Shown here: positions 45,686 through 61,794 of the stretch, piece by piece
Layout of the letters: every line of letters begins with the position of its first letter
Numbering within the stretch: the first letter of the stretch is position 1
DNA from: Leptonemataceae bacterium
GTDB taxonomy: Bacteria; Spirochaetota; Leptospiria; Leptospirales; Leptonemataceae
Direction: 5' to 3'
Length of the DNA: 64,000 bases
NCBI GenBank assembly: GCA_965227295.1
Contig: OZ245742.1
Location: forward strand, 768,001 to 832,000
Translations under genes and position numbers: made by a program
Notes under the pieces: generated by a model
Databases searched by the model: none
Told to the model about the DNA's origin: nothing
Seen by the model: the letters and a program-made list of their open reading frames with translations, nothing else

Positions 45686-45890
45686 TTGCGGCTCCCATCC
45701 GAACGATGGCGCCGCGGTGTTGCTTTGCGAGAAGATTTAGCCGGACATAGTCGGAATCCGGAGAAACACTCCCCAAAGGAGAGAGTGTCGCGCGATTTGC
45801 TGCACCGGCAACGATTTAGATGCTGACGATTTCGGTGACCGGGGCGGAATACTGGCTGTAAAACTATATATGGAAGCAGGTTGGAGTAAC

Positions 45891-47051
45891 ATGAAATCAC
45901 AAACAGTCAACAAACCACTCATTGCGAGCGAGAGCCTGCCGGAACTGGAGCCCGCGGAGGTCCGCCGTTACGACCGGCACATTATTCTTCCGAACGTTGG
46001 CCGCGAAGGACAGCAGAAACTCAAGGCCGCGCGCGTACTGATCATCGGCGCCGGCGGCCTGGGCTCACCCATCTCCCTGTATCTGGCCGCGGCGGGAGTG
46101 GGAACGCTCGGCCTGGTTGACTCCGATACCGTGGACGAATCGAATCTCCAGCGCCAGGTGCTCTACGGTTCCCAGGACCTGGGACTTTCCAAAGTAGACA
46201 GAGCGGAAGCCCGTCTCAATCAATTGAATCCCCGGACGGAAATCGTAAAGTTCAAAGACAGACTGAGCTCGGCCAACGCCCTCGATATCATCGGGGACTT
46301 TGATCTGGTCGTGGACGGTACGGACAACTTCCCCACGCGCTACCTGGTCAACGATGCGTGCGTCATGCTGGGCAAGCCCTTCTGTTACGGCAGCATCTAT
46401 CAATTCGAAGGGCAGGCGTCCGTCTTCCATCACGCAGACGGGCCGTGCTATCGCTGTCTGTATCCGGAACCGCCGCCGCCGCACCTCGCCCCTTCCTGTT
46501 CCGAGGGCGGCGTGTTCGGTGTTTTGCCTTCGATCATCGGTTCGATCCAGGCCACGGAAGCGATCAAGCTCATCCTCGGCCAGGGAGATGTCTTGAGCGG
46601 ACGTTATCTACTCTTTGACGCGCTCTCCATGGACTTCCGGGAGCTCGCCATCAAACGTAAGTCGGACTGCGCCGTATGCGGGGATGCGCCGACGGTGACC
46701 GACCTCATCGACTACAATCAATTTTGCGGCCTGCCCCCGGTTAACACGGACCCGGGTTACAAAGAAATTACCGGCGCGGATCTCAGGACCCTGCTCGCCG
46801 AAACGAATCCACCGGTGCTGTTGGATGTTCGGGAAGACCATGAGCGCGCCGTGGCTCTCATTCCGGAGTCCATTCACATTCCCATGCACGACGTCGCGTC
46901 TCGCCTGAGCGAGCTGGACGCGCAGCGACCCACCGTCGTGCATTGTAAGATGGGCGGACGTTCCGCGAAGATTTGCGGTACGCTGCTGGCCGCCGGCTTC
47001 ACCGACGTCAGTAATCTCAAAGGTGGAATCGACGCGTACTACGCCGGGTAA
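45891..47051 (+). CDS. moeZ: MoeB/E1-like adenylyltransferase-rhodanese fusion (MoeZ)
   Basis: RYDRHI, GAGGLG, SNLQRQ, PCYRC, C-terminal rhodanese DVRE...HCKMGGRS. Confidence 0.93.
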   Translation: MKSQTVNKPLIASESLPELEPAEVRRYDRHIILPNVGREGQQKLKAARVLIIGAGGLGSPISLYLAAAGVGTLGLVDSDTVDESNLQRQVLYGSQDLGLSKVDRAEARLNQLNPRTEIVKFKDRLSSANALDIIGDFDLVVDGTDNFPTRYLVNDACVMLGKPFCYGSIYQFEGQASVFHHADGPCYRCLYPEPPPPHLAPSCSEGGVFGVLPSIIGSIQATEAIKLILGQGDVLSGRYLLFDALSMDFRELAIKRKSDCAVCGDAPTVTDLIDYNQFCGLPPVNTDPGYKEITGADLRTLLAETNPPVLLDVREDHERAVALIPESIHIPMHDVASRLSELDAQRPTVVHCKMGGRSAKICGTLLAAGFTDVSNLKGGIDAYYAG

Positions 47052-47077
47052 CCGGCGGTACGCGAGCCGCTCCGTGT

Positions 47078-48517
47078 TTAGAACTGAAAATAAATAAACT
47101 GCCCGCTCGCGTCGCCGTAGACCGTCACCAGGTAACCGACCACGAACGTGCCGACGAACACTAATACGTAACGAAGCACAGTTTGCCGGCCGAGCCATTC
47201 TTTGATGCCCGGGTAGTACTGCGGAATGTTAAACAACAACGCCGTAAGACTCAAGAGCAACGTGCCGTCGAAGGACCCCACGGGATTCGCGCGCTGGAAC
47301 GTGAAGATGCCGTAAAAGAGATCCATGGCCTTATCGAAACCCGGGGCCGCGAAGAACACGGCGGTGTAAGCAAACAACAGATACGTACGCGCGCCGCGCA
47401 AAAAGTTCGCCCAACGGGCGTCATCGGGTAGAATCTGCCAGCCGCGTCCCACCGTAAACTGTTCCCAACATAATATTAAGCCGAGCAGCACGCCCCATAC
47501 GAACATCGTCCAGGTGGCCCCGTGCCAGAGGCCGCCCAACGCCATAGTGATTAACACGTTAACATATACCCGGGACGGCCCGACCCGCGAACCGCCCAGC
47601 GGAATGAAGATGTAATCGCGCAACCACATGGTGAGCGTGATGTGCCAGCGTCGCCAGAGCTCGCGCATGGACTTCGCGAGGAACGGACCCGCAAAGTTTT
47701 CGGGAATCTCGTAGCCGATCATCTTCGCCATGCCGCGGGCCATGTCCGTATAGCCGGAGAAGTCGCAGTAGACCTGTGAGATGAAGGCAATCGGAGCGAG
47801 GATCAGGGCCGTGGCGTCGTACTCGGCGGGGTTTTGCCAGAGCGGCGTCATCACCATGCCGATGCGATCGGCGATCAGCACTTTCTTAATGACGCCCTGT
47901 AAAACCAGCAACGAACCGTTCAGCATCTTATCCCGGGACGGCTGCGGATTGTCGATCTGCGGAATGAAATCCGAAGAACGCATGATCGGCCCGGCGATGA
48001 ATTGCGGAAAGAACAGAATGAAAATGACGTACTTGCGAAAGGAAACGCCGGAACTAACGCCGTCTACCTCGGTCTCTTTGATCTCGCCGCGATACGCGTC
48101 GACGAGAAAGGCGACGATCTGGAACGTATAGAACGAGATGGCGATGGGCAACTCGATGCCGAAGTCGTAGTCTTCGATCCAGTTGCGCCGCAGGTCGGCG
48201 ATGTAAGGATCCCCGATGAGCACGCCGGCGGATTCTGCGAAGAAATAAAAATACTTAAAGAATGCAAGGTTCCCGATGTCTATGACCAGGCCCACGATCA
48301 ACGGCCACAGCATCTTGCGTTTCATAAGCAAGGCGCTGAGATAGTAGTTTATGCAGATCAGCAGTAGAAAAACGCCGAGGAAAAAGGGGCTATACCAGGC
48401 GTAGAAAATAAAGCTTGTCAGGATGATGAGAAGCTGCTTTCCTCGAACCGGCAACGGCCAGTAGAGCAGATAAAAAACAAAAAAGAGTACGAGAAAAACT
48501 GCCGAGTTGAACAGCAT
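47078..48517 (-). CDS. MBOAT O-acyltransferase (second copy)
   Basis: MLFNS, LPIAISFYTFQ, YCDFSGYTD, WRRWHI, GLWHGA. Confidence 0.95.
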   Translation of the reverse strand: MLFNSAVFLVLFFVFYLLYWPLPVRGKQLLIILTSFIFYAWYSPFFLGVFLLLICINYYLSALLMKRKMLWPLIVGLVIDIGNLAFFKYFYFFAESAGVLIGDPYIADLRRNWIEDYDFGIELPIAISFYTFQIVAFLVDAYRGEIKETEVDGVSSGVSFRKYVIFILFFPQFIAGPIMRSSDFIPQIDNPQPSRDKMLNGSLLVLQGVIKKVLIADRIGMVMTPLWQNPAEYDATALILAPIAFISQVYCDFSGYTDMARGMAKMIGYEIPENFAGPFLAKSMRELWRRWHITLTMWLRDYIFIPLGGSRVGPSRVYVNVLITMALGGLWHGATWTMFVWGVLLGLILCWEQFTVGRGWQILPDDARWANFLRGARTYLLFAYTAVFFAAPGFDKAMDLFYGIFTFQRANPVGSFDGTLLLSLTALLFNIPQYYPGIKEWLGRQTVLRYVLVFVGTFVVGYLVTVYGDASGQFIYFQF

Positions 48518-48576
48518 TCTGCCAGAAAGGGCGCCGGGACATCGATGTCAATCAGGACCGCCTCTCCCCCACTTCC

Positions 48577-48876
48577 ATGCAAATCAAAAGAGAAGGTGAC
48601 ACAGTACACATTCGTTTCGAAGGCCCCGCCACCACGGAACTGGACCGCAACGAGCTGGATTTCCCCGACGACGGCAGCGTCCGTGAATTCAACCTGGAAT
48701 TCCGCGGCGTGAAACTCATCTCGTCCATGGTCCTGGCCAGCATGATGTTCCTCATGGACCGCCACCGCGGCAAAGCGAAGATCCGTCTCATGAATCTGGA
48801 GCCGGAAATGCGCAATTTGCTCACCCGCACCGGCCTGGGCTCCTGGCTGGAGATGGCGGAAAGCTCAGACAAATAA
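48577..48876 (+). CDS. Small STAS-like protein
   Basis: LEFRGVKLISS...LLTRTGL pattern. Confidence 0.65.
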   Translation: MQIKREGDTVHIRFEGPATTELDRNELDFPDDGSVREFNLEFRGVKLISSMVLASMMFLMDRHRGKAKIRLMNLEPEMRNLLTRTGLGSWLEMAESSDK

Positions 48877-49045
48877 TTCCCCGACTCACTACAAAAAAGC
48901 TGGTTTTCCCGGGCTGGAGTCCCATACTCTTCTCCACCGATATTGCAACATGGCGTAAGTCGACCGGTAATGAGACGCGTTCTCAGAAAAAATCTTGCCG
49001 CGAGCACGCTTTCAGGCTAACGTAGAACTATAGAGAGGATCAGCC

Positions 49046-49462
49046 ATGCACAGGGGAATCTTCGGAAAGACCAGACGGGAGATAGCCGCCATCCTGAGAC
49101 AATGCGGGGTAAACCCGACTACGCAACGTGTAGAAATCGCACATTTTCTTCTGCGTCAGCCCCAGCACCTTTCGGCAGATGAGGTACTTCAAGGCCTGAA
49201 CACCGAGTACGAATGCGTCAGCCAGGCTACGGTTTACAATACGCTCCGTCTGTTCGTGGAACGAGGTGTCATCCGCGAGCTGGTCATCTCACCGGATCGC
49301 ATCTATTACGACTCGAACACCTCGCTGCATCACCACTTCCTGGACGTCGAGACTGGCAGCATTCACGACGTCGACGCCGGACAGATCGCCCTGCCGGAGA
49401 TTTCCCTCGATGCGGAGATCGACGAGGTATCGGTGCTGATCAAAGGCCGGTTCAAGAAATAA
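49046..49462 (+). CDS. Fur-family regulator (Irr/PerR-like)
   Basis: TTQR, HLSADE, SQATVYNTL, YDSNTSLHHHF. Confidence 0.92.
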   Translation: MHRGIFGKTRREIAAILRQCGVNPTTQRVEIAHFLLRQPQHLSADEVLQGLNTEYECVSQATVYNTLRLFVERGVIRELVISPDRIYYDSNTSLHHHFLDVETGSIHDVDAGQIALPEISLDAEIDEVSVLIKGRFKK

Positions 49463-49495
49463 GGGCCGGACGACGGAAGTACTGCACGACCTCAT

Positions 49496-49714
49496 ATGCT
49501 CCAGAACATAGGCATCGATGGCGGCGATCTTGCCCGCGTCTTTCGCGCCCTCGCGAATCCGGCGCGTTTAAAAATTCTACGCATCCTCGGCGAAATCGAA
49601 GGCACGAAGTCCTGCTACTGCCTGAACTACGGTACCCTGCGCCAGTTTCGCGGCTGGATGAATACGTATCTTGCCGATCTCCCGGACGGCGACGACGATC
49701 CGCACTGCTGTTGA
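49496..49714 (+). pseudogene. ArsR/SmtB regulator with an internal in-frame deletion of the HTH
   Basis: FRALANPARLKIL joined directly to GEIEGTKSCYCLN; C-terminal CC. Confidence 0.65.
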
Positions 49715-49734
49715 GCCGGGGCAGCTAACTTACA

Positions 49735-50367
49735 GTGAACGCATCCTTACGAGAGTATCTGAACGCCCGCGCCGCGGAGTTCGACAAGATTCCCGAGGAA
49801 CGCCGCTCGATTCTGGATCGCCTGGGCACATTCGCGCGCGAGCGTATTGCGGCCGGCGAAACGGCACAGTTGATCTTTATTTGCACGCACAACTCCCGGC
49901 GCAGTCACCTCGCCCAGGCCGCGGCGCTGTCCGCGGCGGAGTTCTCCGGATACAACCAGGTCGGCGCTACGCAAAACGTCGCGGCCTACTCCGGCGGCAC
50001 CGAAGCCACGGCGATGTTTCGTCGTTCCGTGGACGCACTGCGCGACGCGGGCTATCATATAACAGACGGTGACGGCGGCACCGATGAGAATCCGGTCTAC
50101 GTGATTGCCACGGGCGAGGACGACGCGGGCGTGCGTTTCTTTTCGAAGCGTTTTAATGACGCGGCGAACCCGCAAGGAGGCTTCGCCGCCATCATGACCT
50201 GTTCCCAGGCGGATGCCGAGTGCCCCTTCGTGCCCGGCGCCGCGGCGCGCATCAGTCTGCCGTACGAAGATCCCAAACTCTTCGACGGTACGCCGCGGGA
50301 GTTAGAGAAATACCAGGAACGCTGTCGGGATATTCATCGGGAGATTTTGTACGCGCTGCGAGTTTGA
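49735..50367 (+). CDS. LMW-PTP/arsenate reductase-like protein
   Basis: FICTHNSRRSH, YSGGTE, TCSQAD-x2-CPFVPGA, YEDPK. Confidence 0.88.
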   Translation: MNASLREYLNARAAEFDKIPEERRSILDRLGTFARERIAAGETAQLIFICTHNSRRSHLAQAAALSAAEFSGYNQVGATQNVAAYSGGTEATAMFRRSVDALRDAGYHITDGDGGTDENPVYVIATGEDDAGVRFFSKRFNDAANPQGGFAAIMTCSQADAECPFVPGAAARISLPYEDPKLFDGTPRELEKYQERCRDIHREILYALRV

Positions 50368-50416
50368 AGCATTAACTCCGAAGACCGGGGCCCCTCGGTC
50401 CCCGGAGTAATCATCT

Positions 50417-50971
50417 TCACCCCGGCAAATACATCGGCGCGGCTACTTTCTCGCGAACCTCTTTGCCGCAGAGTTGTTCCACTAACTCCAGCGCAAATTC
50501 GAACGCACTCCCCGGCCCGATGCTCGTAGTAATCTTTTCATGGCGCATGAGCCGGGCGTTCTGCACGTACTTGCCGCCCTGGCCGTCTTTCAACGTCGCC
50601 GGATGCAACACGAACGGAACGTCCCCGCTGACGATGCCGTGATTTCGCAGCACGTTCGGTGCCGCGCAAATGGCGCCGATGTAACGATCCTGGTCGCGCA
50701 TCTTTTGCAGGAGTTCCGTAACGACGGGATGCGCTTCCAGATTGCGCGCGCCCTCGGCGCCGCCGGGCAGGACGATCATGTCGAAGTCCTCGCCGGCAAC
50801 ATCGTCAATGAGCGCGTCCGCCACGTGTTTGGTTCCGCGGCTGGCAGTGATGGGTCCGGCATGCAGACCGGCGGCAATGACTTCGAGGTTCGCCCGGCGC
50901 AGGACGTCGATAATGATGATGCCCTCCATCTCTTCGAATCCGTCGGCGAGGGGGACGAGCACTCTCGGCAT
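50417..50971 (-). CDS. DJ-1/YajL family glyoxalase
   Basis: GFEEME, LPGG, AICAAP, GPGSAFEFAL. Confidence 0.93.
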   Translation of the reverse strand: MPRVLVPLADGFEEMEGIIIIDVLRRANLEVIAAGLHAGPITASRGTKHVADALIDDVAGEDFDMIVLPGGAEGARNLEAHPVVTELLQKMRDQDRYIGAICAAPNVLRNHGIVSGDVPFVLHPATLKDGQGGKYVQNARLMRHEKITTSIGPGSAFEFALELVEQLCGKEVREKVAAPMYLPG

Positions 50972-50998
50972 GTAAGTTCCTCCAATATAAAGTTAAGA

Positions 50999-52084
50999 TC
51001 AGGAGACGGGTTCTGCCACGTAGTCTTCCAGGTAGAAGATGCGCGTGTCTTCCCGTTTGCCGCGCAGTTTGTTCACGCGCAGGCGTTTTACCCTGGCATG
51101 CGCGCCCAGGGCGTCGCGGGTAGCACCGTCTATGAGTATATCGAGGTTCGCGCGCTTGGTCAACATTTCCAGGCGGCTGGCCACGTTCACCGGATCGCCC
51201 ACCACGGAGTACTCGATGTGCCGGACCGAGCCGATGTTGCCCGCGAAGACCCGACCCGTGGCGATGCCCATGGCCGCTCGCAACGGTTCCGTAAGGTACT
51301 CGGGGCGGACGTCGTTGTACGTGCTGAGGTACTCGCGGATCTGCAACGCGCAGCGAACGCAATTCGCAGCGTCCTCCGGCGAAGAGACCGGGCAACCGAA
51401 TGTCGCAAAAACACCGTCGCCGGTCATCTTGTTGACCGAGCCGTGATTGCCGTATACCAGGTCCATAATGTCCGTAAAAATCTCCGAAAGAAATGAGGAG
51501 AACTCTCGCGGCCCGAGGCTTTCGCCGATCCCGGTACTGTTTCGCAGATCGAAAAACATCAATGAAGCCGTGACGTTGGCGCCGGCCATATCCGCGTCGT
51601 CGTCGTTCAGAATTTTTTCGATGAGTTCGTCCGAGAAGTAACGGGCGAGCCGGTTGCGTTCGCGGGCCAGTTTATCGTTCTCCGCCTTCATGTACTGGCG
51701 GTAGTGCTTGAGCTCGATGAGGTTGCGCAGGCGAATGGCCATCTCCGCCAGATTGAAGGGTTTTTGAATGTACTCGTCCGCGCCGTGCCAGAGCGATTTG
51801 ATCTTCACCTTTTCGCTCTCATCGTCCGAGATGATCATGATCGCTGTTTCTTCGGGACGGCGGGCCTCCTTTACGCGATCGATGAGCTGAAGATTGTCCG
51901 GCCCGGGGTTCTCCATGCCCAGGAGCACGACGTCCGGACGCACATCGCGAACGAGCTCTTCGATCTGCTTCGCACTCGAACTGGTTTCAATGACGTAGCC
52001 GAGTTCGCGGACAGCCTGTTCCAGCAGCGCCAGGGTTTTCGTATCTTCATCCACGGCCAGCAGGCGATGGTTCTCGGTGCCCAT
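50999..52084 (-). CDS. Receiver domain plus class III adenylate/guanylate cyclase
   Basis: REC (VDED, PDVVLLG, GADEYIQKPF); cyclase FFDLRNST, KMTGDG, GDPVNVASRLE. Confidence 0.92.
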   Translation of the reverse strand: MGTENHRLLAVDEDTKTLALLEQAVRELGYVIETSSSAKQIEELVRDVRPDVVLLGMENPGPDNLQLIDRVKEARRPEETAIMIISDDESEKVKIKSLWHGADEYIQKPFNLAEMAIRLRNLIELKHYRQYMKAENDKLARERNRLARYFSDELIEKILNDDDADMAGANVTASLMFFDLRNSTGIGESLGPREFSSFLSEIFTDIMDLVYGNHGSVNKMTGDGVFATFGCPVSSPEDAANCVRCALQIREYLSTYNDVRPEYLTEPLRAAMGIATGRVFAGNIGSVRHIEYSVVGDPVNVASRLEMLTKRANLDILIDGATRDALGAHARVKRLRVNKLRGKREDTRIFYLEDYVAEPVS

Positions 52085-52149
52085 AGGCGACCAGAGTTGC
52101 AGCTCCAGGCGATGATTGTCTACAAAGAAAGAATGCGCCGATGCTAAGG

Positions 52150-54885
52150 CTACAGCGGCAGTTGAATCGAAAACTCGGTAAACCGTCCCGGGGCGAAGCT
52201 TGTGCGAATCTTACCGCCCAGGTCCTGAATCCCTTTTTTAATGATGTCCATGCCGACACCCCGGCCGGCGAGCTTATCCGATTCATCGGCCGTAGAAAGG
52301 CCTGGCATGTAGATGAGCCGGGCAATCTGCGCCTCGGACCAGGCGTTGATTTCGTCGGCGCTCCACCGGCCGGACTCCAGGGCCAGGCGCCGCAGCTTAT
52401 CGATGGCCAGGCCGCGACCGTCGTCCCGGATCGTAAGATTCAAGCGCCGCTGATCGTTGTCTTCGAGGATCTGCGCCGCGAGCTGAATGGTACCGCAGGC
52501 CGCCTTGGCCGCACCCACGCGCTCGTCCGGTGTTTCGATGCCGTGCGACAGGGAGTTGCGCACTAACTGCACCAGAATGTCCTTTAGCGGCTTACGGAAT
52601 TTCTGCGGAATCATTTCGGCTTCGAAAGCGGCGTGATCCAGGACGCACTCTTTGCCCAGCTCCGTGCTGAGTTTTTCCACGACTCCGGCGAGGCTCTTCA
52701 GGAAGGCTTCGCGGAAACCGCCGACATCCCGCCCGTCGCCCGCGGTGGCGCTGCTGTAATCGGTGAGGCGGCGACTCAGTCCGCCCAGTTCGTCCAGGAG
52801 TTCCTGCATGCGACTCATCATAAAAACCAGCGGCAAAAAATCCGTGCGGCCCAGTTCCGGATTGGCCTTCATTTCCGAGAGACGCTCCTCGAACTCGTGG
52901 GCCTGGTCCGCCACGAAATTCAGTTCCAGGAGTGACGCGTTGCCTTTGATCGTATGCATGGCCCGGTAGATCGCGTCGAGCTTATCGGGAAGGGATAGCG
53001 ACGGGTCGTCGGTACGCAGAATGGTGTTGATGTTTTTAACTTCGGCATTGGAGTCTTCGATGAACTCCGCCAGCGTGGCGGGCTCCACGTGCAGCACGCT
53101 GAAGAGGCGCTCCATTTGTTGTTTGTTCTTTTCTTCGTTGGCCCGCAACTGCCGGGTGAGCATCACCTGTTCGGTTACGTCTTTGACGGCGCCCATCAAG
53201 TGCGTGATCGCCTTGCCGTCGTAGATGCGGCTGAACTTGCACTGTAAGATTTTCGTCGTCGCGCCGCGCACGGTATCGTCGAAGTGAATCTCGAACTCCT
53301 GCATGGGATTCAGGTCGCGCACCCACACGACGTCCATGTCCGGCTTGAGCATAAGTTCCAGGTAATCCTGAATAGCCTGCTGTTCTTCCGGAGTCACCAG
53401 GCGACCGATCATGGTGCCGAAATTTTCCTGGGCCAGGCTCTCGCGCTGGAAGATGCGTTCCAGGGCCTTACTGTACTGCGCCCCGATGATCATATCCGGC
53501 CCCATGAGAAACAGGCCCTCGTCCACGTTTTCAAAGATGGCGTCGCGTTCCTTGAGCGTGGCCTCGAGACTCGACATGACCGTGTTGTAGCGATACGCGA
53601 TCTGGCCGACCTCGGTGAACGGCTCCACGGGAACACGAATGCTCAGATCCCCGCTCCGCGCCTGAGCGTCCATGGCCTGAAACAAATCGATGAGTTCGGT
53701 AGTGGCCCCGTGCTCGGCGACGTTCAGGCCGATCTTCTCGTCCTCGGCACTAACTCTCAGCGGGATTATCTTATCGATCGTCCACAACATGAGGAACCCG
53801 ATGCCGAAGGCCCACACCGCACACGTACCCACACCGAGGGCCTGCGCGCCGAGCTGCTCCCACATGCCAAGGCCGGTACCGAGAATTTCCGGATCGCCGA
53901 AGAGCGCGACCGCGAGCGTCCCCCAGATACCGGCAGCGGCGTGCACCGGGAAGGCGCCCACCGCGTCGTCGATGTGCAGGCGCTCCAGTAACTCTTCAAC
54001 GGCGAACATTACCAGACCGCCGATGCTGCCGATGAGCACGGCGTACGGAGCGGTGACCGCATGACAACTGGCCGTGATGGCGACGAGCCCGGCCAGGCTG
54101 CCGTTAATAATGAACGTAACCTCGGCAACACGTTTGATGGACCAGCCGACGAGCAATGCGGCGACGCCGCCGGCGGCCCCGGCGAGCACGGTGTTGGTAA
54201 TGATGCGCGCAACGCTCGCGTCCATGGCCAGGGTCGAGCCGCCGTTGAAACCGAACCAACCGAACCACAGAAGCAACGAGCCGAGAATCGCGTTGGGAAT
54301 GTTGGAACCGGCAATGTCCCGGGTGGTACCGTCGTCGCCGAAACGTCCGCCCCGGGGTCCGAGTTGAATGACCGCGGCGAGTCCGACCCAGCCGCCGACA
54401 CTATGCACGACGGTGGAACCGGCGAAGTCCACAAAGCCTTCGCCGCCGAGCCAGCCGCCGTCACCCCAGACCCAGTGACCGAAGAGCGGATAGATCAGAC
54501 CGGAGACGACCAGGGTGGCGATGAGATAACTGGAGAAGCGCATGCGTTCTGCCGCGGCGCCGGAGACGATGGTGGCGGCCGTGGCACAGAACATGGCCTG
54601 GAACAAAAAGAACGAGGTATGCCACATCTCGCCGGCGGTATCGAGGAGAAAGGAGTCCGTTCCAACCCAGCCCTTGTAGGTGGCACCGAACATGAGAGCG
54701 AAACCGAAAGCCCAGAAGAGCAGAATCGAGAAGCCGAGGTCGCTCATGTTCTTCATGGCGACGTTGATGCTGTTTTTCGAACGCGTGAAACCGGATTCGA
54801 GCATGGCGAAGCCCGGTTGCATGAGGAATACGAGTCCGGATGCGAGCAGCACCCAGAGAATGTCAGTCAGGCTTTTCTCCGGCAT
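52150..54885 (-). CDS. Ammonium transporter fused to a PAS-like region, HPt and CheA-like HATPase
   Basis: Amt: FQAMF, DFAGSTVVH, WFGFNGGS, DDAVGAFPVH. Kinase: HTIKG, RNSLSHGIE, DDGRG, GRGVGMD. Confidence 0.93.
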   Translation of the reverse strand: MPEKSLTDILWVLLASGLVFLMQPGFAMLESGFTRSKNSINVAMKNMSDLGFSILLFWAFGFALMFGATYKGWVGTDSFLLDTAGEMWHTSFFLFQAMFCATAATIVSGAAAERMRFSSYLIATLVVSGLIYPLFGHWVWGDGGWLGGEGFVDFAGSTVVHSVGGWVGLAAVIQLGPRGGRFGDDGTTRDIAGSNIPNAILGSLLLWFGWFGFNGGSTLAMDASVARIITNTVLAGAAGGVAALLVGWSIKRVAEVTFIINGSLAGLVAITASCHAVTAPYAVLIGSIGGLVMFAVEELLERLHIDDAVGAFPVHAAAGIWGTLAVALFGDPEILGTGLGMWEQLGAQALGVGTCAVWAFGIGFLMLWTIDKIIPLRVSAEDEKIGLNVAEHGATTELIDLFQAMDAQARSGDLSIRVPVEPFTEVGQIAYRYNTVMSSLEATLKERDAIFENVDEGLFLMGPDMIIGAQYSKALERIFQRESLAQENFGTMIGRLVTPEEQQAIQDYLELMLKPDMDVVWVRDLNPMQEFEIHFDDTVRGATTKILQCKFSRIYDGKAITHLMGAVKDVTEQVMLTRQLRANEEKNKQQMERLFSVLHVEPATLAEFIEDSNAEVKNINTILRTDDPSLSLPDKLDAIYRAMHTIKGNASLLELNFVADQAHEFEERLSEMKANPELGRTDFLPLVFMMSRMQELLDELGGLSRRLTDYSSATAGDGRDVGGFREAFLKSLAGVVEKLSTELGKECVLDHAAFEAEMIPQKFRKPLKDILVQLVRNSLSHGIETPDERVGAAKAACGTIQLAAQILEDNDQRRLNLTIRDDGRGLAIDKLRRLALESGRWSADEINAWSEAQIARLIYMPGLSTADESDKLAGRGVGMDIIKKGIQDLGGKIRTSFAPGRFTEFSIQLPL

Positions 54886-54936
54886 GGGATGGTCCTGTGG
54901 TTGTAGAGTGGCGGCTTAAGAGATAGCGAATGGAAC

Positions 54937-55380
54937 TTACTCGATGCCGGCGACGATGAACGACTTGTGCCCCTTCCAGATGACGGGAATGACGTAGGTC
55001 GGAATACGGACCGGCAGATTGATGCTGGGTTTGCCCACGATGACGATGGGCACCGAGATCATGAAGTTGCTGCCGAAAGACTTGCGCGCGTTGCCGGAGA
55101 TGGTGTTGGCGATTTCACCGACCATGTCCTTCATGGCGTCTTCGGTGGCGTTGCCTTCGCCCAGTACCACTTCCACGATAGCCGTGAGCATGTCCCTGCC
55201 CGTGGTGAAGTAGACGCACCCCTTGCGTTCGCCGGAAATCCCGATGGCCCCGGTATAATCGAGGATGACTTCTTCTTCGCCCTTGAGATACGGGAGGCCG
55301 ATCTCCGGCTCAGAGCCGCCGACCTCACTGAAGTAGTTCAAGGTACCGTTAACAAAAACCTGTACGTCCTGTTCCTGCAT
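54937..55380 (-). CDS. cheX: CheX phosphatase
   Basis: IGISG, DMVGEIANTISGN, ISVP. Confidence 0.93.
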   Translation of the reverse strand: MQEQDVQVFVNGTLNYFSEVGGSEPEIGLPYLKGEEEVILDYTGAIGISGERKGCVYFTTGRDMLTAIVEVVLGEGNATEDAMKDMVGEIANTISGNARKSFGSNFMISVPIVIVGKPSINLPVRIPTYVIPVIWKGHKSFIVAGIE

Positions 55381-55381
55381 C

Positions 55382-55744
55382 TCAGGCGCCCTCCATCAGC
55401 CGGTCGAAAGCTTCTTTGAGTTTGTCTTCGGTGAAGGGTTTGCCGACGAAACCCTTTGCGCCGAGCTTCAATGCTTTGAGGGCCGTGGCCTGATCGCTCA
55501 GGGCGCTGATCACCAGGATGCGCGCGGAACCGTCGATCTTCAGCATCTCTTCGAGAGCGCTGAGACCGTCCATCTCGGGCATGGTGATATCCATGGTCAC
55601 GAGTTCGGGCTTTTTCTCCTGAAACATTTCGATGGCCGTCCGCCCGTCGCCGGCTTCGCCGACCACTTCCAGCTTGTACTGTTCGAGATATTTCTGGATC
55701 GCTTTGCGGATGATGCTGCTATCATCCACGATGAGTATCTTCAT
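55382..55744 (-). CDS. cheY: CheY-like response regulator
   Basis: VDDS, MDITMPEMDG, SA, KPF. Confidence 0.9.
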   Translation of the reverse strand: MKILIVDDSSIIRKAIQKYLEQYKLEVVGEAGDGRTAIEMFQEKKPELVTMDITMPEMDGLSALEEMLKIDGSARILVISALSDQATALKALKLGAKGFVGKPFTEDKLKEAFDRLMEGA

Positions 55745-56066
55745 GAGCCACCTGCGCCGTCGGGTTCCATTGCAAATGTTATACCAGGGTTAAATCGGCC
55801 TATTCTGATGATATCAAGCCGAAAAAACAGGCAGGTTGTTAAAAAAACGTGAGGGGTGCTGTTTCCACGCTCAGGTTCTGGGCGGAGAATTCGCGATAGC
55901 TGAGTCGCAAACCGACGTCCGGGTCGAGGCGGACAATGTTAACAAAACGACTTACCACAACTCCCGCGAGCCGTAGCATAAAAATCCCCGCCAGGGTTTC
56001 GCAACTTACTTCATGTTTCCCACGGCAAACGCCGCGAAGTTCGATGCTACGAAACCCCGGGCTCGT

Positions 56067-57080
56067 TTATAACAACTCCGCAATCTGCACGGCATTCAAC
56101 GCGGCGCCCTTGAGAATCTGATCCCCGCAACAGAACAGATCGATCTCGCGGCCGTCTTTAGAGTTCGCGGCCTTGCGCAGCCGGCCCACGAACACCTCGT
56201 CCACGCCGGAGGATTCCAGAGGCATGGGAAAGTAGTTCTTCTCACGATCGTCGATGATCTTCACCCCGGGCATCTTCGCGAGGGCGTCTTGAATGGCACC
56301 GAGGTCCGCCGGGTTTTCCAGTTCCAGGTGCACGGACTCAGCGTGCGCGCGAAACGTGCCGATGCGAATGCACGTCGGAGAAACGCCGATGTCCTCGGTG
56401 TGGAGGATCTTGTGCGTCTCTTTGATCATCTTCGTCTCTTCCTGGTTGTAGCCGGTATCCGGGTCCATCGGTGAATTGTGCGAGAATGCGTTAAACGCGA
56501 TGGGAAACGGAAACGCCTCGGGTTTGATCTCCTTGCCGTCGAGGTAGTCCCGCGCCTGGTCTTCGAGTTCCTGCATGGCCGCGGCGCCGGCGCCGGAGGC
56601 CGCCTGGTACGTCGAGACGACGATGTTCTTCACGGGATTGATGCGATGGATCGGAAACACCGCCATGAGCATGATGATGGTCGAACAGTTGGGATTCGCG
56701 ATGATTCCCTTATGCAACTTCACGTCCTCGGGGTTGATTTCCGGAACGACGAGCGGCGTGTTCGGGTCCATGCGAAACGCCGACGAGTTATCGACGACGA
56801 CGGTACCGGCTTCGACGGCGAGCGGGCCGAACTTCTTGCTTATGGAACCGCCGGCGCTGAAGAGCGCAATGTCGATGCCGGCATCTTTGAAAGACGTCTC
56901 CGTGAGTTCCTGCACGGTGTACTCGGTGCCGCGAAACGTCTGCTTCTTCCCGGCGGAGCGCGCGCTGGAGAGCAACGTCAGTTTGCCCAGGGGAAAGTTG
57001 CGTTTTTCGAGGACCTGCAGGAGCTCCACGCCGACAGCGCCGGTGGAGCCCACGATGGCTACGTGCGGAGAATCTTTCAT
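56067..57080 (-). CDS. asd: Aspartate-semialdehyde dehydrogenase
   Basis: GSTGAVG, DNSSAFRM, ANPNCSTI, KGAALNAVQIAE. Confidence 0.97.
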   Translation of the reverse strand: MKDSPHVAIVGSTGAVGVELLQVLEKRNFPLGKLTLLSSARSAGKKQTFRGTEYTVQELTETSFKDAGIDIALFSAGGSISKKFGPLAVEAGTVVVDNSSAFRMDPNTPLVVPEINPEDVKLHKGIIANPNCSTIIMLMAVFPIHRINPVKNIVVSTYQAASGAGAAAMQELEDQARDYLDGKEIKPEAFPFPIAFNAFSHNSPMDPDTGYNQEETKMIKETHKILHTEDIGVSPTCIRIGTFRAHAESVHLELENPADLGAIQDALAKMPGVKIIDDREKNYFPMPLESSGVDEVFVGRLRKAANSKDGREIDLFCCGDQILKGAALNAVQIAELL

Positions 57081-57130: not shown

Positions 57131-58195
57131 CTAGCGGCGAGCAGCAATCTGCTTCCGAAACGCCCCCGGGGAAACCCCGGTCTTGCGCCGAAAGGCTTCG
57201 TAAAACACGGAGTTGGTGTTGAATCCCGCTTCAAAACCCACGGCAGTCACCGAAAGCTCCGGCCGCTCCGCGAGCAACTGCCGCGCATACTCCACGCGGT
57301 ACTCATTCACGAAACCGTAGAAGTTCGTATCGAAGCGCGTGTTGATCAGCTCCGACAACTGATGCGCACTCAGGTCCAGGCGTTCCGCGAGGCCGCTCAA
57401 ACTCAGCGAATCATCCTGAAACAGACGCTCGGCTTCCATTATAGAACGGAGTCGTTCCGCGAGGTCGTTCACAGGGAGACCGCGAAGCCGGGACTGTGCG
57501 TAGCGCGCACGTTCGGCCTCTTCCCGCAGAATTTCGAGAAAGGCCGGATGGCGATTGCCGGTCCAGTAGAGCAGAATCAACATTACGGTCACAAAGGCGT
57601 TCAGGATGTCGTGGGGCGCGAAGATTTCGGCCAGGCCGAGGAGGCCGACGGGGATGGCCAGCAGCAGGGCGGCGCGGCGGATTTCCGGGGGCAGGCTCGC
57701 GGATGAATGCCACAGCCCGGCAAACTGATACAACACGGCCAGGGTATACACGACCATCAGGATCGCGGAGGCGTAACCGACGAGGATGACCTGCGGCGGC
57801 ATAAGGAAGTCCGGATCGTTCCACTGCGAGCGACGGAGGACCGCGTAGACGATGAAACTCGCGCCCGCCAGCAGACCGGGAACGAACAACCAGAACGAGC
57901 GGCGGCGTCCTTCCTCGGAATCACCGGCCAGGCCCTGGGTGAAATAGAGATAGAGGAGCGGCCCGGTCCAGAGATACGCCGTGATGGCTCCCAGGTGCAG
58001 GAGATGGGCCGCGGGTCTCTGTCCGTGTTGGACCAGTACCGGATAGAGGCCGCTCGCGCACTGCCAGCCCGCCACCGAAGCCAGCAGGGCCGGCAGGTAT
58101 CGGCTGCCCCGGCCGCCGCGGACGAGCTGCCCGCCGGCCAGGACGGCCGCCAGAAAGCCACCGAACAGAATCCACGCGCTGAACCAGTGAATCAT
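57131..58195 (-). CDS. Membrane-anchored AraC-family regulator
   Basis: Multi-TM N-terminus; HQLSELIN...VNEYRV...GFNTNSVFY; start MIHWF at 58195 chosen. Confidence 0.88.
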   Translation of the reverse strand: MIHWFSAWILFGGFLAAVLAGGQLVRGGRGSRYLPALLASVAGWQCASGLYPVLVQHGQRPAAHLLHLGAITAYLWTGPLLYLYFTQGLAGDSEEGRRRSFWLFVPGLLAGASFIVYAVLRRSQWNDPDFLMPPQVILVGYASAILMVVYTLAVLYQFAGLWHSSASLPPEIRRAALLLAIPVGLLGLAEIFAPHDILNAFVTVMLILLYWTGNRHPAFLEILREEAERARYAQSRLRGLPVNDLAERLRSIMEAERLFQDDSLSLSGLAERLDLSAHQLSELINTRFDTNFYGFVNEYRVEYARQLLAERPELSVTAVGFEAGFNTNSVFYEAFRRKTGVSPGAFRKQIAARR

Positions 58196-58231
58196 AATGA
58201 AAAAGTTCTCCGGATGTATCCAGACGGATGC

Positions 58232-58260
58232 AATGAGACTGAGAATGAGATTAAATCCCA
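58232..58260. promoter_or_regulatory. Fur-box-like hexamer array
   Basis: AATGAG-ACTGAG-AATGAG-ATTAAA between the divergent AraC and PepSY/TonB genes. Confidence 0.45.
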
Positions 58261-58297
58261 AAAAGAATTCGGGGCCGGCCCCGGCCAGTCAAAATTC

Positions 58298-59446
58298 ATG
58301 CAACCGCGCACGATTCGCAAACTCCACACCTGGCACGCCTGGACCGGGCTCATCTCCGGCGTCAACGTTCTCATTCTGAGCCTCACCGGCTCCGTGCTCG
58401 TTTTCGTCCATGAACTGCACGAGGCCCTCGGTCCGGAAATTCCCGTCACCATCGACGCCGATCCCGGACTCTACGCCGACCTCCCGCTCCAGCCCCTGGT
58501 CAGCGCCATGCGGGCGGAGTACCCGGACGCCCTGCCCGGCACCGTGGGCATCCCCGATCCGGTGGCGGCCGTGGAGGAGCCGGACGAGTTCCTCTACTTT
58601 TTCGAAGTGTTTCCGCGGGCAGGCGGCGAGGAGATCGAGTTTTTCTTTGATCCCCTGGACGGTCGGTATGCGCAGGCCTCGGACGAAATCGACATCCCCG
58701 CATGGATCTGGCATCTGCACGCGGATCTCTTCGCCGGTCTGCCGGGGCGCATCTTCCTCGGCTTCGTGGGTCTCGCCCTGCTCTTTTCCACCGTAAGCGG
58801 TCTGTTGCTCTACGCCCCGTTCATGAAGGGCCTCGCCTTCGGGACGATTCGCCGGGGCGTCGCGACCCGACTCGCCGTCGCCGACGTGCACAAACTCGTC
58901 GGCATCGTGGCTCTATTCTTTAACATGTTAATGGCAACGACCGGCATCCTGCTTACCCTGGGGCAGCTGCTCATCAATCTCTACAGCTACCAGGTCATCC
59001 GCACGCTCGAACCCGTGGACGTTTCCCCGGGCACCGCCCGGGTGGACGTGGACCGGGTGCTGGCCTCGGCGCGGAGCAACTTTCCGGAGAAACATGTTCG
59101 CTGGATCACCTTTCCCGGCGGCATCCAGGGCGAGCACCACTACGTGGCCTTTGCGTACGAGCGCACGTTCTTTCTTTCGCGCATCCCGTACGTTTGTCTC
59201 ATCAACGCCTACGATGCAGAAGTCGATCTCACCGTGGACCTGCCCTGGTGGATTACGATGATCTACGTCGCCGTGCCGCTGCACTTCGGCGACTTCGGCG
59301 GTCTGGGCCTGCGCCTCGTGTACTGCGTCTTCGGCCTCGCCACCGGAGCCCTGAGCATTACCGGGTTCGCCATGTTTTACCTGAAGCGCCGCCGCAAGAA
59401 CGCCCCGGCACAAGATTACTCTGAAAGGAAGTTAGAGAAAGTATGA
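58298..59446 (+). CDS. PepSY-associated TM helix protein
   Basis: RKLHTW, LTGS, WHLHADL, DVHK, PLHFGDFGG. Confidence 0.92.
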   Translation: MQPRTIRKLHTWHAWTGLISGVNVLILSLTGSVLVFVHELHEALGPEIPVTIDADPGLYADLPLQPLVSAMRAEYPDALPGTVGIPDPVAAVEEPDEFLYFFEVFPRAGGEEIEFFFDPLDGRYAQASDEIDIPAWIWHLHADLFAGLPGRIFLGFVGLALLFSTVSGLLLYAPFMKGLAFGTIRRGVATRLAVADVHKLVGIVALFFNMLMATTGILLTLGQLLINLYSYQVIRTLEPVDVSPGTARVDVDRVLASARSNFPEKHVRWITFPGGIQGEHHYVAFAYERTFFLSRIPYVCLINAYDAEVDLTVDLPWWITMIYVAVPLHFGDFGGLGLRLVYCVFGLATGALSITGFAMFYLKRRRKNAPAQDYSERKLEKV

Positions 59447-61794
59447 CTCGATTTCTTAAGATTGCCGTGATTGCGCTGCTGATCGCCGCGCCTGCCGCCG
59501 GCCTGCGCGCTCAGGAACAGGAGCCCGAACCGCAACCGAACGATGAAGACATCATCATCGAAGCCGAGTCGGATTCCGGGAAGTACATTCGCAAGCGCGC
59601 GCCCGGGGTGCTCAAGTCCGACGTGCCCATCATGAACACGCCGCAGAGCGTGCAAATCGTTCCGGAGCAGGTGTATCGCGATCAGCAGGCGCAGGATCTC
59701 AGCGAGGCCACGCGCAACGTGAGCAACGTAACGACGCTGTTTCCGAGCGTCGGCGTGCGCGACTCTCTGGCCATCCGCGGTTTTCAGGTAACGTCCATGT
59801 TGATTGACGGCCTGCCGAACATTACGACCAGCGCCGGCTTCGCTCGACGCGAACTATTGATGTACGAACGCCTGGAAGTTCTGAAAGGTCCGGCTTCGGT
59901 CACGTTCGGCGCCATTGAACCGGGGGGTGCGTTGAACCTGGTAACGAAACGCCCGCAGGGGGAAGCGCGACGTGAGGTGGAGCTGTCCCACGGACGCTGG
60001 GACAACAACGCCGCCACCGCCGATCTGACCGGCCCGCTGAACGAAGACCGCACGTTATTGTACCGCGCCCTGGGCGCCTTTCGTTCCTCACTGAGCTATC
60101 GCGACGAAGTGGAGTCCGAGCGTTACTTTCTCGCGCCGTCGCTTTCCTGGCTCGTGACGCGCGATACGACGATCACGCTCTTCGGTCACTATCAGCGCGA
60201 CAGCGTCGTCAACGATTGGGGCAGCCCGTCCATTCGCGATCCCTATACCGTGGCGTCCCGCGATGTTTATAGCGCGTTGGTGCCGGACCTCATCGAACAG
60301 GCGTACCCGGCGAGCGAGGCCTTTCCGGAAGAGTTTCGCGTGGATGAAAACATCTACACCGAACGTTTCTTCGGAAACGAAAACAACAATCGCAACGAAC
60401 AGGACCAGGGCAGCGCCGGTTATCTCTGGGAAACCGACTTCGGCAACTGGGTCTTCCAGCATCGCAGCCAGGGCGAAAGCGCGTCAACTCACGAGGGACT
60501 GACCTACAATCTAAGTACCATCGAAGATGACAACCGCACGGTGCAACGCGGCTTCGCGAAGCGGGCCTACTACATCGGCACCTACAGCACGCAGTTCGCG
60601 CTGAGCGGCGAGCTGGAGGACGGCTCCGTAACCCATCGCCCGCACATCGGCGTGGACTTCACGCATACGTTTTACCAGGTGAACATCAGCGAGAGCTACC
60701 TCGACGCCGGCACGAACGACATTTACTTAACTGAAAGTGAGCGTGCCTTTGTCGACAACCTGGCGGCGCCGAACCTGGAATTTCTGTGGCTGCACGAGTT
60801 CGACAAACCCATCAACCTGGCGTCGGGGCAGCTACTGCCCGTGGAACAGAAGTTGCGCGCGAATTACGGTGCCGTGTACGGCCGGCATCAGGTTTCCTTC
60901 GGCGACCTGCTGCACGTGAGCGCGGGCGCACGGTTCGACCAGGTGCGCGGCAAGATTCGCGATCAGAACTACGGCATTCGCGAACAGTTGTTCTTTGTGC
61001 CGTCGATTTTTCCCACGCTCTTTACGAACCCGCGGGAGCGTTCGTTAAACGGGGACTTCATCAGTCCTCAGGGCGGCGTGGTGCTGCGGCCCATCAAGTA
61101 CGTTTCAATTTTTGCCAGCGCGTCGGAATCTTACAACCACGACTTCAGCGCGCTGACCCACGGCAATCTCACACCGAAACCGATTCGCTCCGTGGGCTAC
61201 GAGGGCGGGCTGAAGTTCGCGTTCTTCGACGAAAACCTCATCGCCACCACCACCGTGTTTGAAATTACGAAAACCAACGTCTTGATCGACGACCCGCTTC
61301 AGGCGAATCGCCTGCTGCAAAGCGGGGAACAACGCCACCAGGGTTTCGAGTTCGACCTGCTCGCGACACCGGTGGAAGGTCTGAACATGATCGCTTCGTA
61401 TGGTTACATCGACGCAAAGATCACGAAAGACGACACCCGCGATCCCGAAACCGGTCGCAAACTCATTGAAGGCAAACGACCGAACCTGGTGCCCGAGCAC
61501 AACGCCAACGCCTGGATCGTCTACGAACTTCAGGGCGGCCCGTTGCGCGGCCTGGGCTTCGGCGGCGGCGTGTATCACAACTCGTCACGCTACGCCACCG
61601 CGAGCAACGATCTGGTACTGCCGGAGTACACGATCGGCACGGGTCTGATCTACTACAAGATCTACGACGCGAAGCTCTCGGTAACCGCGAAGAACATCAC
61701 GAACAAACGTTACTATGAATCGGCGAACTCCCGCAACGGCATCATTGAGGGCCGGCCGTTCGAGGTCATCGTCGCGCTGAACGCGAAGTTTTGA
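59443..61794 (+). CDS. TonB-dependent siderophore-type receptor
   Basis: TPQSVQIV, IRGF, ERLEVLKGPAS, C-terminal Phe. Confidence 0.95.
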   Translation: MTRFLKIAVIALLIAAPAAGLRAQEQEPEPQPNDEDIIIEAESDSGKYIRKRAPGVLKSDVPIMNTPQSVQIVPEQVYRDQQAQDLSEATRNVSNVTTLFPSVGVRDSLAIRGFQVTSMLIDGLPNITTSAGFARRELLMYERLEVLKGPASVTFGAIEPGGALNLVTKRPQGEARREVELSHGRWDNNAATADLTGPLNEDRTLLYRALGAFRSSLSYRDEVESERYFLAPSLSWLVTRDTTITLFGHYQRDSVVNDWGSPSIRDPYTVASRDVYSALVPDLIEQAYPASEAFPEEFRVDENIYTERFFGNENNNRNEQDQGSAGYLWETDFGNWVFQHRSQGESASTHEGLTYNLSTIEDDNRTVQRGFAKRAYYIGTYSTQFALSGELEDGSVTHRPHIGVDFTHTFYQVNISESYLDAGTNDIYLTESERAFVDNLAAPNLEFLWLHEFDKPINLASGQLLPVEQKLRANYGAVYGRHQVSFGDLLHVSAGARFDQVRGKIRDQNYGIREQLFFVPSIFPTLFTNPRERSLNGDFISPQGGVVLRPIKYVSIFASASESYNHDFSALTHGNLTPKPIRSVGYEGGLKFAFFDENLIATTTVFEITKTNVLIDDPLQANRLLQSGEQRHQGFEFDLLATPVEGLNMIASYGYIDAKITKDDTRDPETGRKLIEGKRPNLVPEHNANAWIVYELQGGPLRGLGFGGGVYHNSSRYATASNDLVLPEYTIGTGLIYYKIYDAKLSVTAKNITNKRYYESANSRNGIIEGRPFEVIVALNAKF

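Follow-up and report, generated by a model that had tools for sequence, protein, structure and literature searches.

The 64-kb stretch of DNA analysed here ('the window', positions 768001–832000 of a single 5.94-Mb contig from a Leptonemataceae bacterium) contains a probable ammonium-receptor kinase pathway composed of three conserved genes, cheY, cheX and an Amt-kinase fusion, and a lineage-specific fourth. All four open reading frames (ORFs) lie on the minus strand, to which the window coordinates below refer unless another strand is given, and are closely packed in this order between 55744 and 50999. The first encodes a stand-alone CheY-like receiver of 120 residues (55382..55744; Pfam Response_reg) and the second a 147-residue CheX, a CheY-P phosphatase (54937..55380; Pfam CheX). 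The third ORF (52150..54885; Pfam and NCBIfam) encodes a 911-residue receptor kinase composed of an Amt membrane module, a HAMP-like linker, a PAS domain, a histidine phosphotransfer (HPt) domain and a CheA-type ATP-binding domain (P4). The fourth (50999..52084) encodes a 361-residue protein that joins a pseudo-receiver to a class III adenylate-cyclase-like domain (Pfam Response_reg and Guanylate_cyc). One base separates cheY from cheX, 51 nt separate cheX from the kinase gene and 65 nt separate the kinase gene from that of the cyclase. The same-strand upstream neighbour is asd (aspartate-semialdehyde dehydrogenase), 322 nt from cheY. An original prediction, made from the letters of the sequence, had placed these four genes at the same positions, and Pfam and NCBIfam support every domain that it named.

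The Amt-kinase fusion is a genuine gene. The 911-codon frame runs without interruption, and the architecture search that had been proposed as a check drew on 5.8 billion proteins, and of the 120 top-ranking relatives 118 combine Amt, Hpt and HATPase_c. These relatives are mostly ~880–1055 residues long (one partial record has 639), and the named ones, Treponema brennaborense and Spirochaeta thermophila among them, belong to the Spirochaetota. Near-full-length matches were found in 19 further genomes from 11 families among 401 sampled in the phylum; this count is a lower bound, as two candidates were scored per genome, and contig ends truncate three of the 19 matches. The stretch is also covered, without differences, by contigs that were assembled separately from two sequencing runs. 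One contig from run X1 spans it entirely, and a contig from run X2 (53563–54401) bridges the junction between Amt and linker. Both runs come from one study, and the assembly may itself have been built from X1. Given the intact frame, the relatives of the same length class and domain content, the 19 other genomes and the second run across the junction, there is a negligible chance that faulty assembly, faulty annotation or gene decay accounts for the fusion.

Matches in this genome to methyl-accepting chemotaxis proteins (MCPs), CheW and P-II all fall outside the 64-kb window, the nearest MCP lying at contig position 843322, in agreement with the earlier observation that no MCP, cheW or glnK gene is adjacent. 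The genome as a whole has 20 MCP-domain, 11 CheW-domain and 5 CheX matches, an unusually large signalling repertoire.

Amt module, linker and PAS domain

The Amt membrane module comprises residues 10–395 (53701..54858). It matches Ammonium_transp (PF00909) at 409 bits against a cut-off of 23.2 (E 2e-122), over profile positions 1–397 of 399, and TIGR00836 at 424 bits against a cut-off of 343, which makes it a full-length member of the Amt/Mep/Rh family. The twin His, Phe and Trp/Ser motifs noted at the outset are intact: H161, H315, F99, F213, W138/W140, S217 and D153 are invariant in 16/16 aligned relatives. We take these pore and recruitment residues to occupy the positions of their counterparts in E. 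coli AmtB. The closest solved chain is that of the ammonium receptor Sd-Amt1 from Shewanella denitrificans (8QJ3, with 8QJ4 and 8QPF; E 3e-118; residues 9–444 aligned; PMC11152129), followed by Ks-Amt5 from Ca. Kuenenia stuttgartiensis (6EU6; E 2e-97; PMC5764959). Transport Amts are more distant (Af-Amt1, 3e-60; E. coli AmtB, ~4e-41).

For the two-ammonium N1/N2 site of receptor Amts, Pfluger et al. 2024 proposed the signature QX6EX15NX2D[F/T]X54-60TX2[S/T] (PMC11152129). Six of the seven positions of this ammonium-receptor (AmR) signature fit the fusion (Q23, E30, N46, D49, T105 and S108); at the seventh, L50 replaces Phe or Thr. The genome has two other Amts. One is amtB, followed by two glnK genes, which fails the signature, and the other is a stand-alone Amt, which passes it. 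By overall sequence similarity, rather than by signature, the module of the fusion belongs in the receptor branch, and it is most likely that it serves to bind NH4+ and not for bulk uptake.

The stand-alone Amt gene that passes the strict signature lies within contig 868863–872178, ~37 kb past the window, where a strict sigma-54 motif is followed after 54 nt by a GAF-SpoIIE-TPR gene (607 aa) that overlaps it. The two genes may correspond, in separate form, to the fused Amt-SpoIIE proteins found in Leptospira.

The membrane module is joined to the cytoplasmic part by a HAMP-like two-helix linker (residues 397–452; 53530..53697), which was absent from the original prediction. The linker was assigned from the Sd-Amt1 alignment, which runs to Sd-Amt1 residue 452 and thus across the HAMP domain of that protein, and from an AlphaFold2 (AF2) model. 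It carries the strongly conserved motif GDLSxRVPxEPFTEVGQIAxRYN, around which lie helices 397–411 and 425–452, and Pfam HAMP gives weak matches in 17/51 family members. The fusion thus shares with Sd-Amt1 the arrangement of an Amt core connected to a C-terminal transducer by a HAMP-like linker. In the model of residues 396–911, which has a predicted local distance difference test (pLDDT) score of 86.4, the two helices are followed by an α/β domain, a long helix, a four-helix bundle and an ATP-binding domain.

The α/β domain (residues 456–569; 53179..53520), earlier described as PAS-like, has a true PAS fold. All 50 VIA-align rows shown for the AF2 model of residues 450–600 (pLDDT 82.7) are PAS or LOV domains, with Z of 9.6–12.7, 92–137 aligned residues and a root-mean-square deviation (rmsd) mostly of 2.4–4.4 Å (5.0 and 7.8 Å in two rows); among the family members, 9/51 match Pfam PAS_9. 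The domain is followed by the long linker helix (residues 571–598; 53092..53175). Two relatives of 1052 and 1055 residues (P0016 and P0015) have an extra canonical PAS domain (PF13426) after the HAMP-like linker.

Two copies of residues 396–715 were predicted to pair with a score of 0.50, against a best of 0.13 among three controls. The mark is reached by 20/30 proteins solved as same-chain pairs and 1/23 solved as single chains, counts that are only a rough guide because the alignment was our own. At least 79% of contacts recur between runs, the partner pLDDT is at least 81, and the predicted interface has the HAMP-like helices as its core, together with the PAS sheet edge and the long helix; the HPt domain is not involved. 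The model supports pairing of this region without demonstrating binding, and the result may reflect likeness to, or memory of, HAMP and PAS-kinase dimers whose structures are solved. If the prediction is correct, the linker takes over the role of the CheA dimerization domain P3, and the problem of a trimeric membrane part above a dimeric cytoplasmic part, encountered with Sd-Amt1, applies here too. We had considered loss of P3 as a way round this mismatch, an idea that was dropped when the dimer prediction passed through the HAMP-like unit, PAS domain and helix.

HPt–P4 kinase core and its family

The output of the fusion consists of two domains. The HPt four-helix bundle, which resembles CheA P1 (residues 602–714 by Pfam and AF2; 52744..53082), matches Pfam Hpt at residues 605–700 (E 2e-10) and contains the HTIKG motif recognized earlier (H644–G648). 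Its phospho-acceptor, identified by alignment to CheA P1, is H644 (52954..52956); H644, K647 and G648 are invariant in 16/16 and 51/51 aligned relatives. The P4 domain (residues 723–911; 52153..52719) ends with the protein and matches HATPase_c at residues 769–911 (E 5e-12). All 51 aligned relatives likewise keep E666 and the N, G1 and G2 boxes, the invariant P4 residues being N777/H781/G782/E784, D821/G823/G825 and G874/G876/G878. The assignment of P4 as CheA-type holds both in sequence and in structure. A phmmer comparison aligns the fusion with P1 residues 31–103 and P4 residues 338–507 of the 654-residue E. coli CheA (P4 E 4e-27), and the modelled domain fits solved P4 structures of T. maritima CheA with a TM-score of 0.85–0.87 and an rmsd of 2.1–2.6 Å over 186 columns.

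The remaining domains of CheA are missing. The protein stops at the equivalent of CheA residue 507 of 654, as expected from the earlier report of an end lacking CheW/P5, and the NCBIfam model of E. coli CheA is matched only at positions 355–523 of 670. Pfam finds no CheW domain (P5) in the fusion or in 51 family members. It finds no H-kinase_dim (P3) in the fusion either, and this domain does not appear among the 25 families, of 32 in all, that were listed for the 51 family members. HMMER often misses P3, according to a survey of CheA proteins (PMC10782961), so the structural reading carries the weight here: in the AF2 model a single helix of 20 residues connects HPt helix D to the first strand of P4, and there is no two-helix hairpin of the P3 type. 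HisKA has no match in the fusion at E 0.01 or better and is readily found in Amt fusions of other phyla. As a positive control, the same Pfam search of the genome's true CheA recovered Hpt, P2, H-kinase_dim (E 5e-17), HATPase_c, CheW and CheC. That protein is encoded in a canonical cheW-cheA-cheB-cheY operon at contig 2933220–2938332, and its C-terminal CheC-like part corresponds to the CheA-CheC fusion reported for the Leptospirae class (PMC10782961). The 2023 survey describes Hpt, P3, P4 and a CheW domain in every CheA (PMC10782961). The fusion has only HPt and P4, without P3 or P5, and is therefore not a CheA but a sensor kinase with the catalytic core of CheA. The absence of P3, like the linker, had been overlooked in the original prediction.

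Comparison with known proteins defines what is distinctive about this arrangement. In both Sd-Amt1 and the fusion, an Amt is joined C-terminally to a cytoplasmic transducer, the Amt core and HAMP linker align, and the cytoplasmic parts are predicted to pair beneath a trimeric membrane part (PMC11152129). Sd-Amt1 differs in having a GGDEF cyclase as its output, whereas that of the fusion is a PAS-HPt-P4 module directed to CheY/CheX, and in having Phe after the signature Asp, where the fusion has Leu after D49. Ks-Amt5 also couples an Amt to a histidine kinase and is described as carrying a classical two-component module (PMC10433425, PMC11152129). Unlike Ks-Amt5, the fusion has no HisKA/DHp domain, carries its phospho-His on a separate HPt domain, uses a CheA-type ATP-binding domain and is encoded with CheY and CheX rather than with a transcription regulator. 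With the CheA proteins of E. coli and T. maritima it shares an H-x-x-K-G HPt that aligns to P1, the P4 fold, and a CheY substrate and CheX phosphatase encoded alongside; it differs from them in lacking P2, P3 (H-kinase_dim) and P5 (CheW), in having its sensor fused directly and in having no CheW or MCP nearby. Other Amt fusions (Amt-PAS-HisKA-HATPase-REC, Amt-PAS-GGDEF-EAL, and Amt-SpoIIE as in Leptospira ainazelensis) are alike in the receptor-type Amt and juxtamembrane linker, with 42–57% identity from residue 1 to ~450–620, but have different outputs, and an HPt directly before the ATP-binding domain occurs in 0/11 of those checked.

The PAS-HPt-P4 cassette is also found behind many other sensors. 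Searched against 1.84 billion cluster representatives, residues 396–911 match 1428 at E 1e-30 or better, and in nearly all of the best 150 the match extends from approximately residue 439 to the C-terminal end (911), preceded by N-terminal parts of 0 to ~1200 residues. Among 51 cassette relatives scanned, the inputs include Reg_prop/Y_Y_Y (20/51), ROK (6/51), GAF, PAS, HAMP, 7TMR-DISM, MASE6, PilJ, REC and one Amt fragment; none of the 51 contains CheW or H-kinase_dim. The non-Amt cassette kinases share with the fusion both the PAS-HPt-P4 C-terminus and adjacent cheY and cheX genes, which are present in 7/7 loci examined: all five found in 121 genomes of the phylum, a locus from another genome (L139) and a second operon in the window's own genome. 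Because this holds for 7/7 non-Amt loci, we regard sensor-PAS-HPt-P4, CheY and CheX as the conserved unit, with Amt as one sensor of many. In five named genomes outside the phylum (metagenome-assembled genomes of Bacteroidetes, Chitinophagaceae, Ignavibacteria, Desulfovibrionaceae and Bryobacterales), the full cassette was found in 0/5, and the matches were to P4 only. For 10 cassette relatives, the one organism name on record was Leptospiraceae.

The second operon (contig 2969415–2982371) encodes a receiver and CheX, followed by two very large kinases (2005 and 2030 residues) with the organization Pkinase-AAA_16-GAF-Hpt-HATPase_c, which end in the same cassette. Locus L139 (3394223–3407662 of its genome) encodes an 862-residue protein with the same HAMP-PAS-HPt-P4 part (43% identity) and an N-terminal region of 400 residues that matches nothing in Pfam. 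Next comes a cyclase gene, its receiver likewise lacking the Asp, and 1.4 kb beyond this are cheY and two cheX genes.

The original prediction had treated P5-less CheA-like class III kinases as known. They are indeed abundant in the databases, but we found no paper describing Amt-HPt-P4 fusions or P5-less CheA-core sensor kinases in the literature searched, which covered text and not figures; Tremblay and Hallenbeck 2009, cited for widespread sensor Amts, may list such fusions.

CheY, CheX, the downstream cyclase and the promoter region

CheY (Pfam Response_reg, E 1e-30; best NCBIfam matches, the CheB receiver and haloarchaeal CheY) has the complete set of receiver residues D7, D8, D52, S80 and K102, as seen in both sequence and alignment, and D52 is kept in 11/11 aligned CheY proteins of these operons, that of the window included. 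CheX scores 68.6 bits against the PF13690 cut-off of 27 (E 5e-19), identifying it as a member of that family, and matches the solved CheX proteins 3h4y and 3hm4 at E 7e-14. Its residues E89 and N92 are invariant in 27/27 CheX proteins encoded beside cassette kinases; we take them to be the catalytic Glu/Asn pair known from T. maritima CheX. The cheY-cheX pair lies directly upstream of the kinase gene in 16/16 complete orthologous loci, drawn from 11 families across the phylum, and in two further loci where a contig end cuts the kinase. For a distant Amt-kinase (30% identity), cheX and cheY are found downstream instead. Gene order supports the assignment of CheY and CheX as partners of the kinase, and the catalytic motifs of all three proteins are conserved.

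The cyclase is the variable member of the cluster, linked to the kinase by adjacency only. Its catalytic set is complete for a class III enzyme (D179, D223, K219, S293, N300 and R304), the Lys and Ser being presumably adenine-specific, and its best solved match is the Cya2-derived cyclase 6fht/2w01. From these residues it looks catalytically competent for cyclic AMP (cAMP) synthesis. The description of this protein as a receiver-adenylate cyclase holds for its domains and catalytic residues but not for its receiver as a phosphorylation site, in which Gly56 (51917..51919) takes the place of the phospho-acceptor Asp and aligns with CheY D52. The receiver retains D12, E13, S86 and K108. Gly is also present in the seven closest homologues (52–91% identity), against Asp in 75 of 121 sequences scanned (the query and 120 homologues). 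One close homologue shares a contig with a close relative of the kinase.

What follows the kinase gene varies among 17 loci, the window counted. A SpoIIE phosphatase gene is present in 4/17 (L122, L123, L124 and L136), accompanied by a CBS domain in three; a PAS-cyclase or cyclase fragment in 4/17, the cyclase carrying PAS and not a receiver in three orthologous operons; a receiver-like cyclase in 1/17, the window only; and an unrelated or unrecognized gene in 8/17. The SpoIIE phosphatases of four operons, together with the Amt-SpoIIE fusions, suggest a recurring link between ammonium sensing and PP2C-type enzymes.

A sigma-54-type −24/−12 element that the original prediction had not picked up, TGGTATAACATTTGCA (GG-N10-GC; 55771..55786), lies 26 nt upstream of the cheY ATG. 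It has the GG and GC ten bases apart, as in the consensus TGGCAC-N5-TTGCA, and is the sole match to TGGYAYN5TTGCW in the 64-kb window, where 0.10 was expected and at least one was found in 10/100 shuffles. An element scoring at least 9/11 is present upstream of cheY in 11/18 loci, compared with 1.4% of 4000 random 270-nt stretches from the same loci. Just upstream of many ordinary amt genes in the loci collected, the same −24/−12 pattern is found, and rpoN is present in the genome along with at least nine strong sigma-54 activators. The operon is probably transcribed from this element; as a sigma-54 promoter it would depend on an enhancer-binding activator, plausibly a nitrogen-status regulator. 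A generic scan of 50200–56300 gave no excess over chance, with one sigma-70 promoter-like site against 1.4 expected and three terminator-like sites against 5.7 expected. Inspection by eye upstream of cheY also turned up a sigma-28-like GCCGAT, which has no −35 partner and was rejected.

A DJ-1/PfpI gene (50971..50417) begins 27 nt past the cyclase and is not counted in the system because none of the orthologous loci has it there. Ordinary neighbours follow at 44525–50367: an acyl-CoA dehydrogenase, a ThiF/MoeB-rhodanese protein, an MBOAT acyltransferase, a Fur-family regulator and a weakly matched low-molecular-weight phosphatase/ArsC-like protein. On the other side (57131–61794), a minus-strand gene for an AraC-type regulator is opposite plus-strand genes for a PepSY-TM protein and a TonB-dependent receptor. 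This is likely an iron or siderophore uptake unit; the 579-residue ORF call for the PepSY protein begins too early, with the Pfam match starting only at residue 208.

Proposed pathway and alternatives

The following core mechanism seems to us the probable one, well short of certainty. Ammonium occupying the Amt module would cause a conformational change that passes from the last transmembrane helix through the HAMP-like unit and PAS domain to the long helix. These elements would pair two chains in place of the P3 domain of CheA, and an alteration in their pairing would raise or lower the activity of P4. P4 would bind ATP and phosphorylate H644 of the adjacent HPt domain, from which the phosphoryl group would pass to D52 of the operon's CheY. 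Its quick removal by CheX, through E89/N92, would make the signal fast and resettable. The pathway would do without arrays, CheW and methylation enzymes, and hence there would be no classical adaptation of the response. Expression would be set by the sigma-54 promoter, and bulk ammonium uptake would be left to the separate amtB with its two glnK genes. Phosphorylated CheY might then act on the flagellar switch or feed into the canonical pathway to give an ammonium-dependent swimming response, the likeliest outcome, although at less than even odds.

Several observations weigh against this scheme. The fusion does not match the strict N1/N2 signature, and because of L50 ammonium binding at that site is not assured; only 3/121 family members pass the strict form, and Leu is the commonest residue at the position (47 members). 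Pfam HAMP has no match in the window's own fusion protein. A trimeric Amt and a predicted paired cytoplasmic part are mismatched, and for Sd-Amt1 the same mismatch is left unsettled in the available text of the report (PMC11152129). The sole evidence that joins kinase, CheY and CheX into one circuit is synteny, taken from loci of related genomes that are not independent of one another. Identity to the closest CheY paralogue in the genome, that of the canonical cheW-cheA-cheB-cheY operon, is 47%, a weak hint only on the target of CheY. The sigma-54 element is missing or weak in 7/18 loci, and the strict motif is not enriched genome-wide (16 found, 15.6 expected), so the promoter argument rests on position and conservation.

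The intact and invariant pore residues, together with the imperfect receptor signature, leave room for a transceptor, that is, a fusion that still transports ammonium at useful rates and whose kinase senses the flow through the pore, not the filling of a dedicated binding site; plant Amt1 proteins that carry the signature do transport (PMC11152129). We consider this unlikely, given that a canonical amtB, accompanied by two glnK genes, and another Amt that stands alone are already encoded in the genome, that the nearest solved relatives are two characterized receptors and that Ks-Amt5, according to the authors, did not complete translocation (PMC11152129). The receptor reading of the Amt module can be kept while the destination of the signal is changed: the pathway could be real and phosphorylated CheY could act on a target outside motility, for example by docking on the cyclase pseudo-receiver in the window's lineage or, in other lineages, by cross-talk with the CBS-SpoIIE phosphatase, so that ammonium would set a cAMP or partner-switch state. 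A signalling enzyme follows the kinase in 9/17 loci (five cyclases and four SpoIIE phosphatases), L139 and L164 have cyclases beside their non-Amt cassette kinases, many inputs to which the cassette is joined (Pkinase-AAA_16-GAF, ROK and Reg_prop/Y_Y_Y among them) are unrelated to taxis, and no methylation genes accompany it. Against this, the downstream gene is absent or unrelated in 8/17 loci while cheY-cheX is constant; some cyclase adjacency is to be expected by chance because the genome has ~30 class III cyclase paralogues (tblastn with the cyclase domain, E 1e-8 or better); the closest CheY paralogue is the che-operon CheY; and CheX with a stand-alone CheY is typical of motility pathways. 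A target outside motility is on balance rather doubtful.

The remaining alternative is the one closest to the original prediction, in which the kinase would phosphorylate both CheY and the cyclase receiver, and ammonium would directly drive cAMP synthesis. Its appeal lies in a cyclase gene only 65 nt behind the kinase gene on the same strand, with complete catalytic residues and a receiver that keeps D12, E13, S86 and K108. Phosphotransfer by this route is very unlikely because Gly56 replaces the phospho-acceptor, as in the closest homologues; moreover, the counterpart at L139 has Ser at the position and lacks the acidic pair and Lys, and three orthologous operons have a PAS-cyclase without any receiver. 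With no canonical phospho-site in the cyclase, its coupling to the kinase would have to take another route or be merely transcriptional. Of the receptor-free, chemosensory-like system first proposed, the Amt sensor, the P5-less HPt-P4 output and the CheY/CheX partners thus stand, while the link to cAMP by phosphotransfer does not, given Gly56 and a downstream gene that varies between genomes.

A more ambitious version of the ammonium-receptor scheme would make the PAS-HPt-P4 kinases with CheY/CheX a distinct array-free and CheW-free class, in which dimerization through HAMP, PAS and helix replaces P3, and would have the Amt member let spirochaetes steer or alter their speed in direct response to ammonium, sigma-54 tie its expression to nitrogen status and, in the window's lineage, phosphorylated CheY also dock on the Asp-less receiver of the cyclase to couple ammonium to cAMP. 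Taken jointly, these propositions are improbable.

To our knowledge, only two Amt-based ammonium receptors have been studied, with a classical histidine kinase and a diguanylate cyclase as their outputs. If the proposed mechanism is correct, the fusion represents a third type of Amt output, in which ammonium is connected to CheY and CheX, the rapid means by which bacteria adjust their behaviour, and chemoreceptors, CheW and methylation have no part. Our analysis also indicates that 'one-piece' sensor kinases built on the core of CheA form a large family without a name, which falls outside chemotaxis censuses because the definition of CheA requires a CheW domain. The fusion would offer a simple setting for the question of how a sensor that forms trimers in the membrane can control a kinase that works as a dimer.

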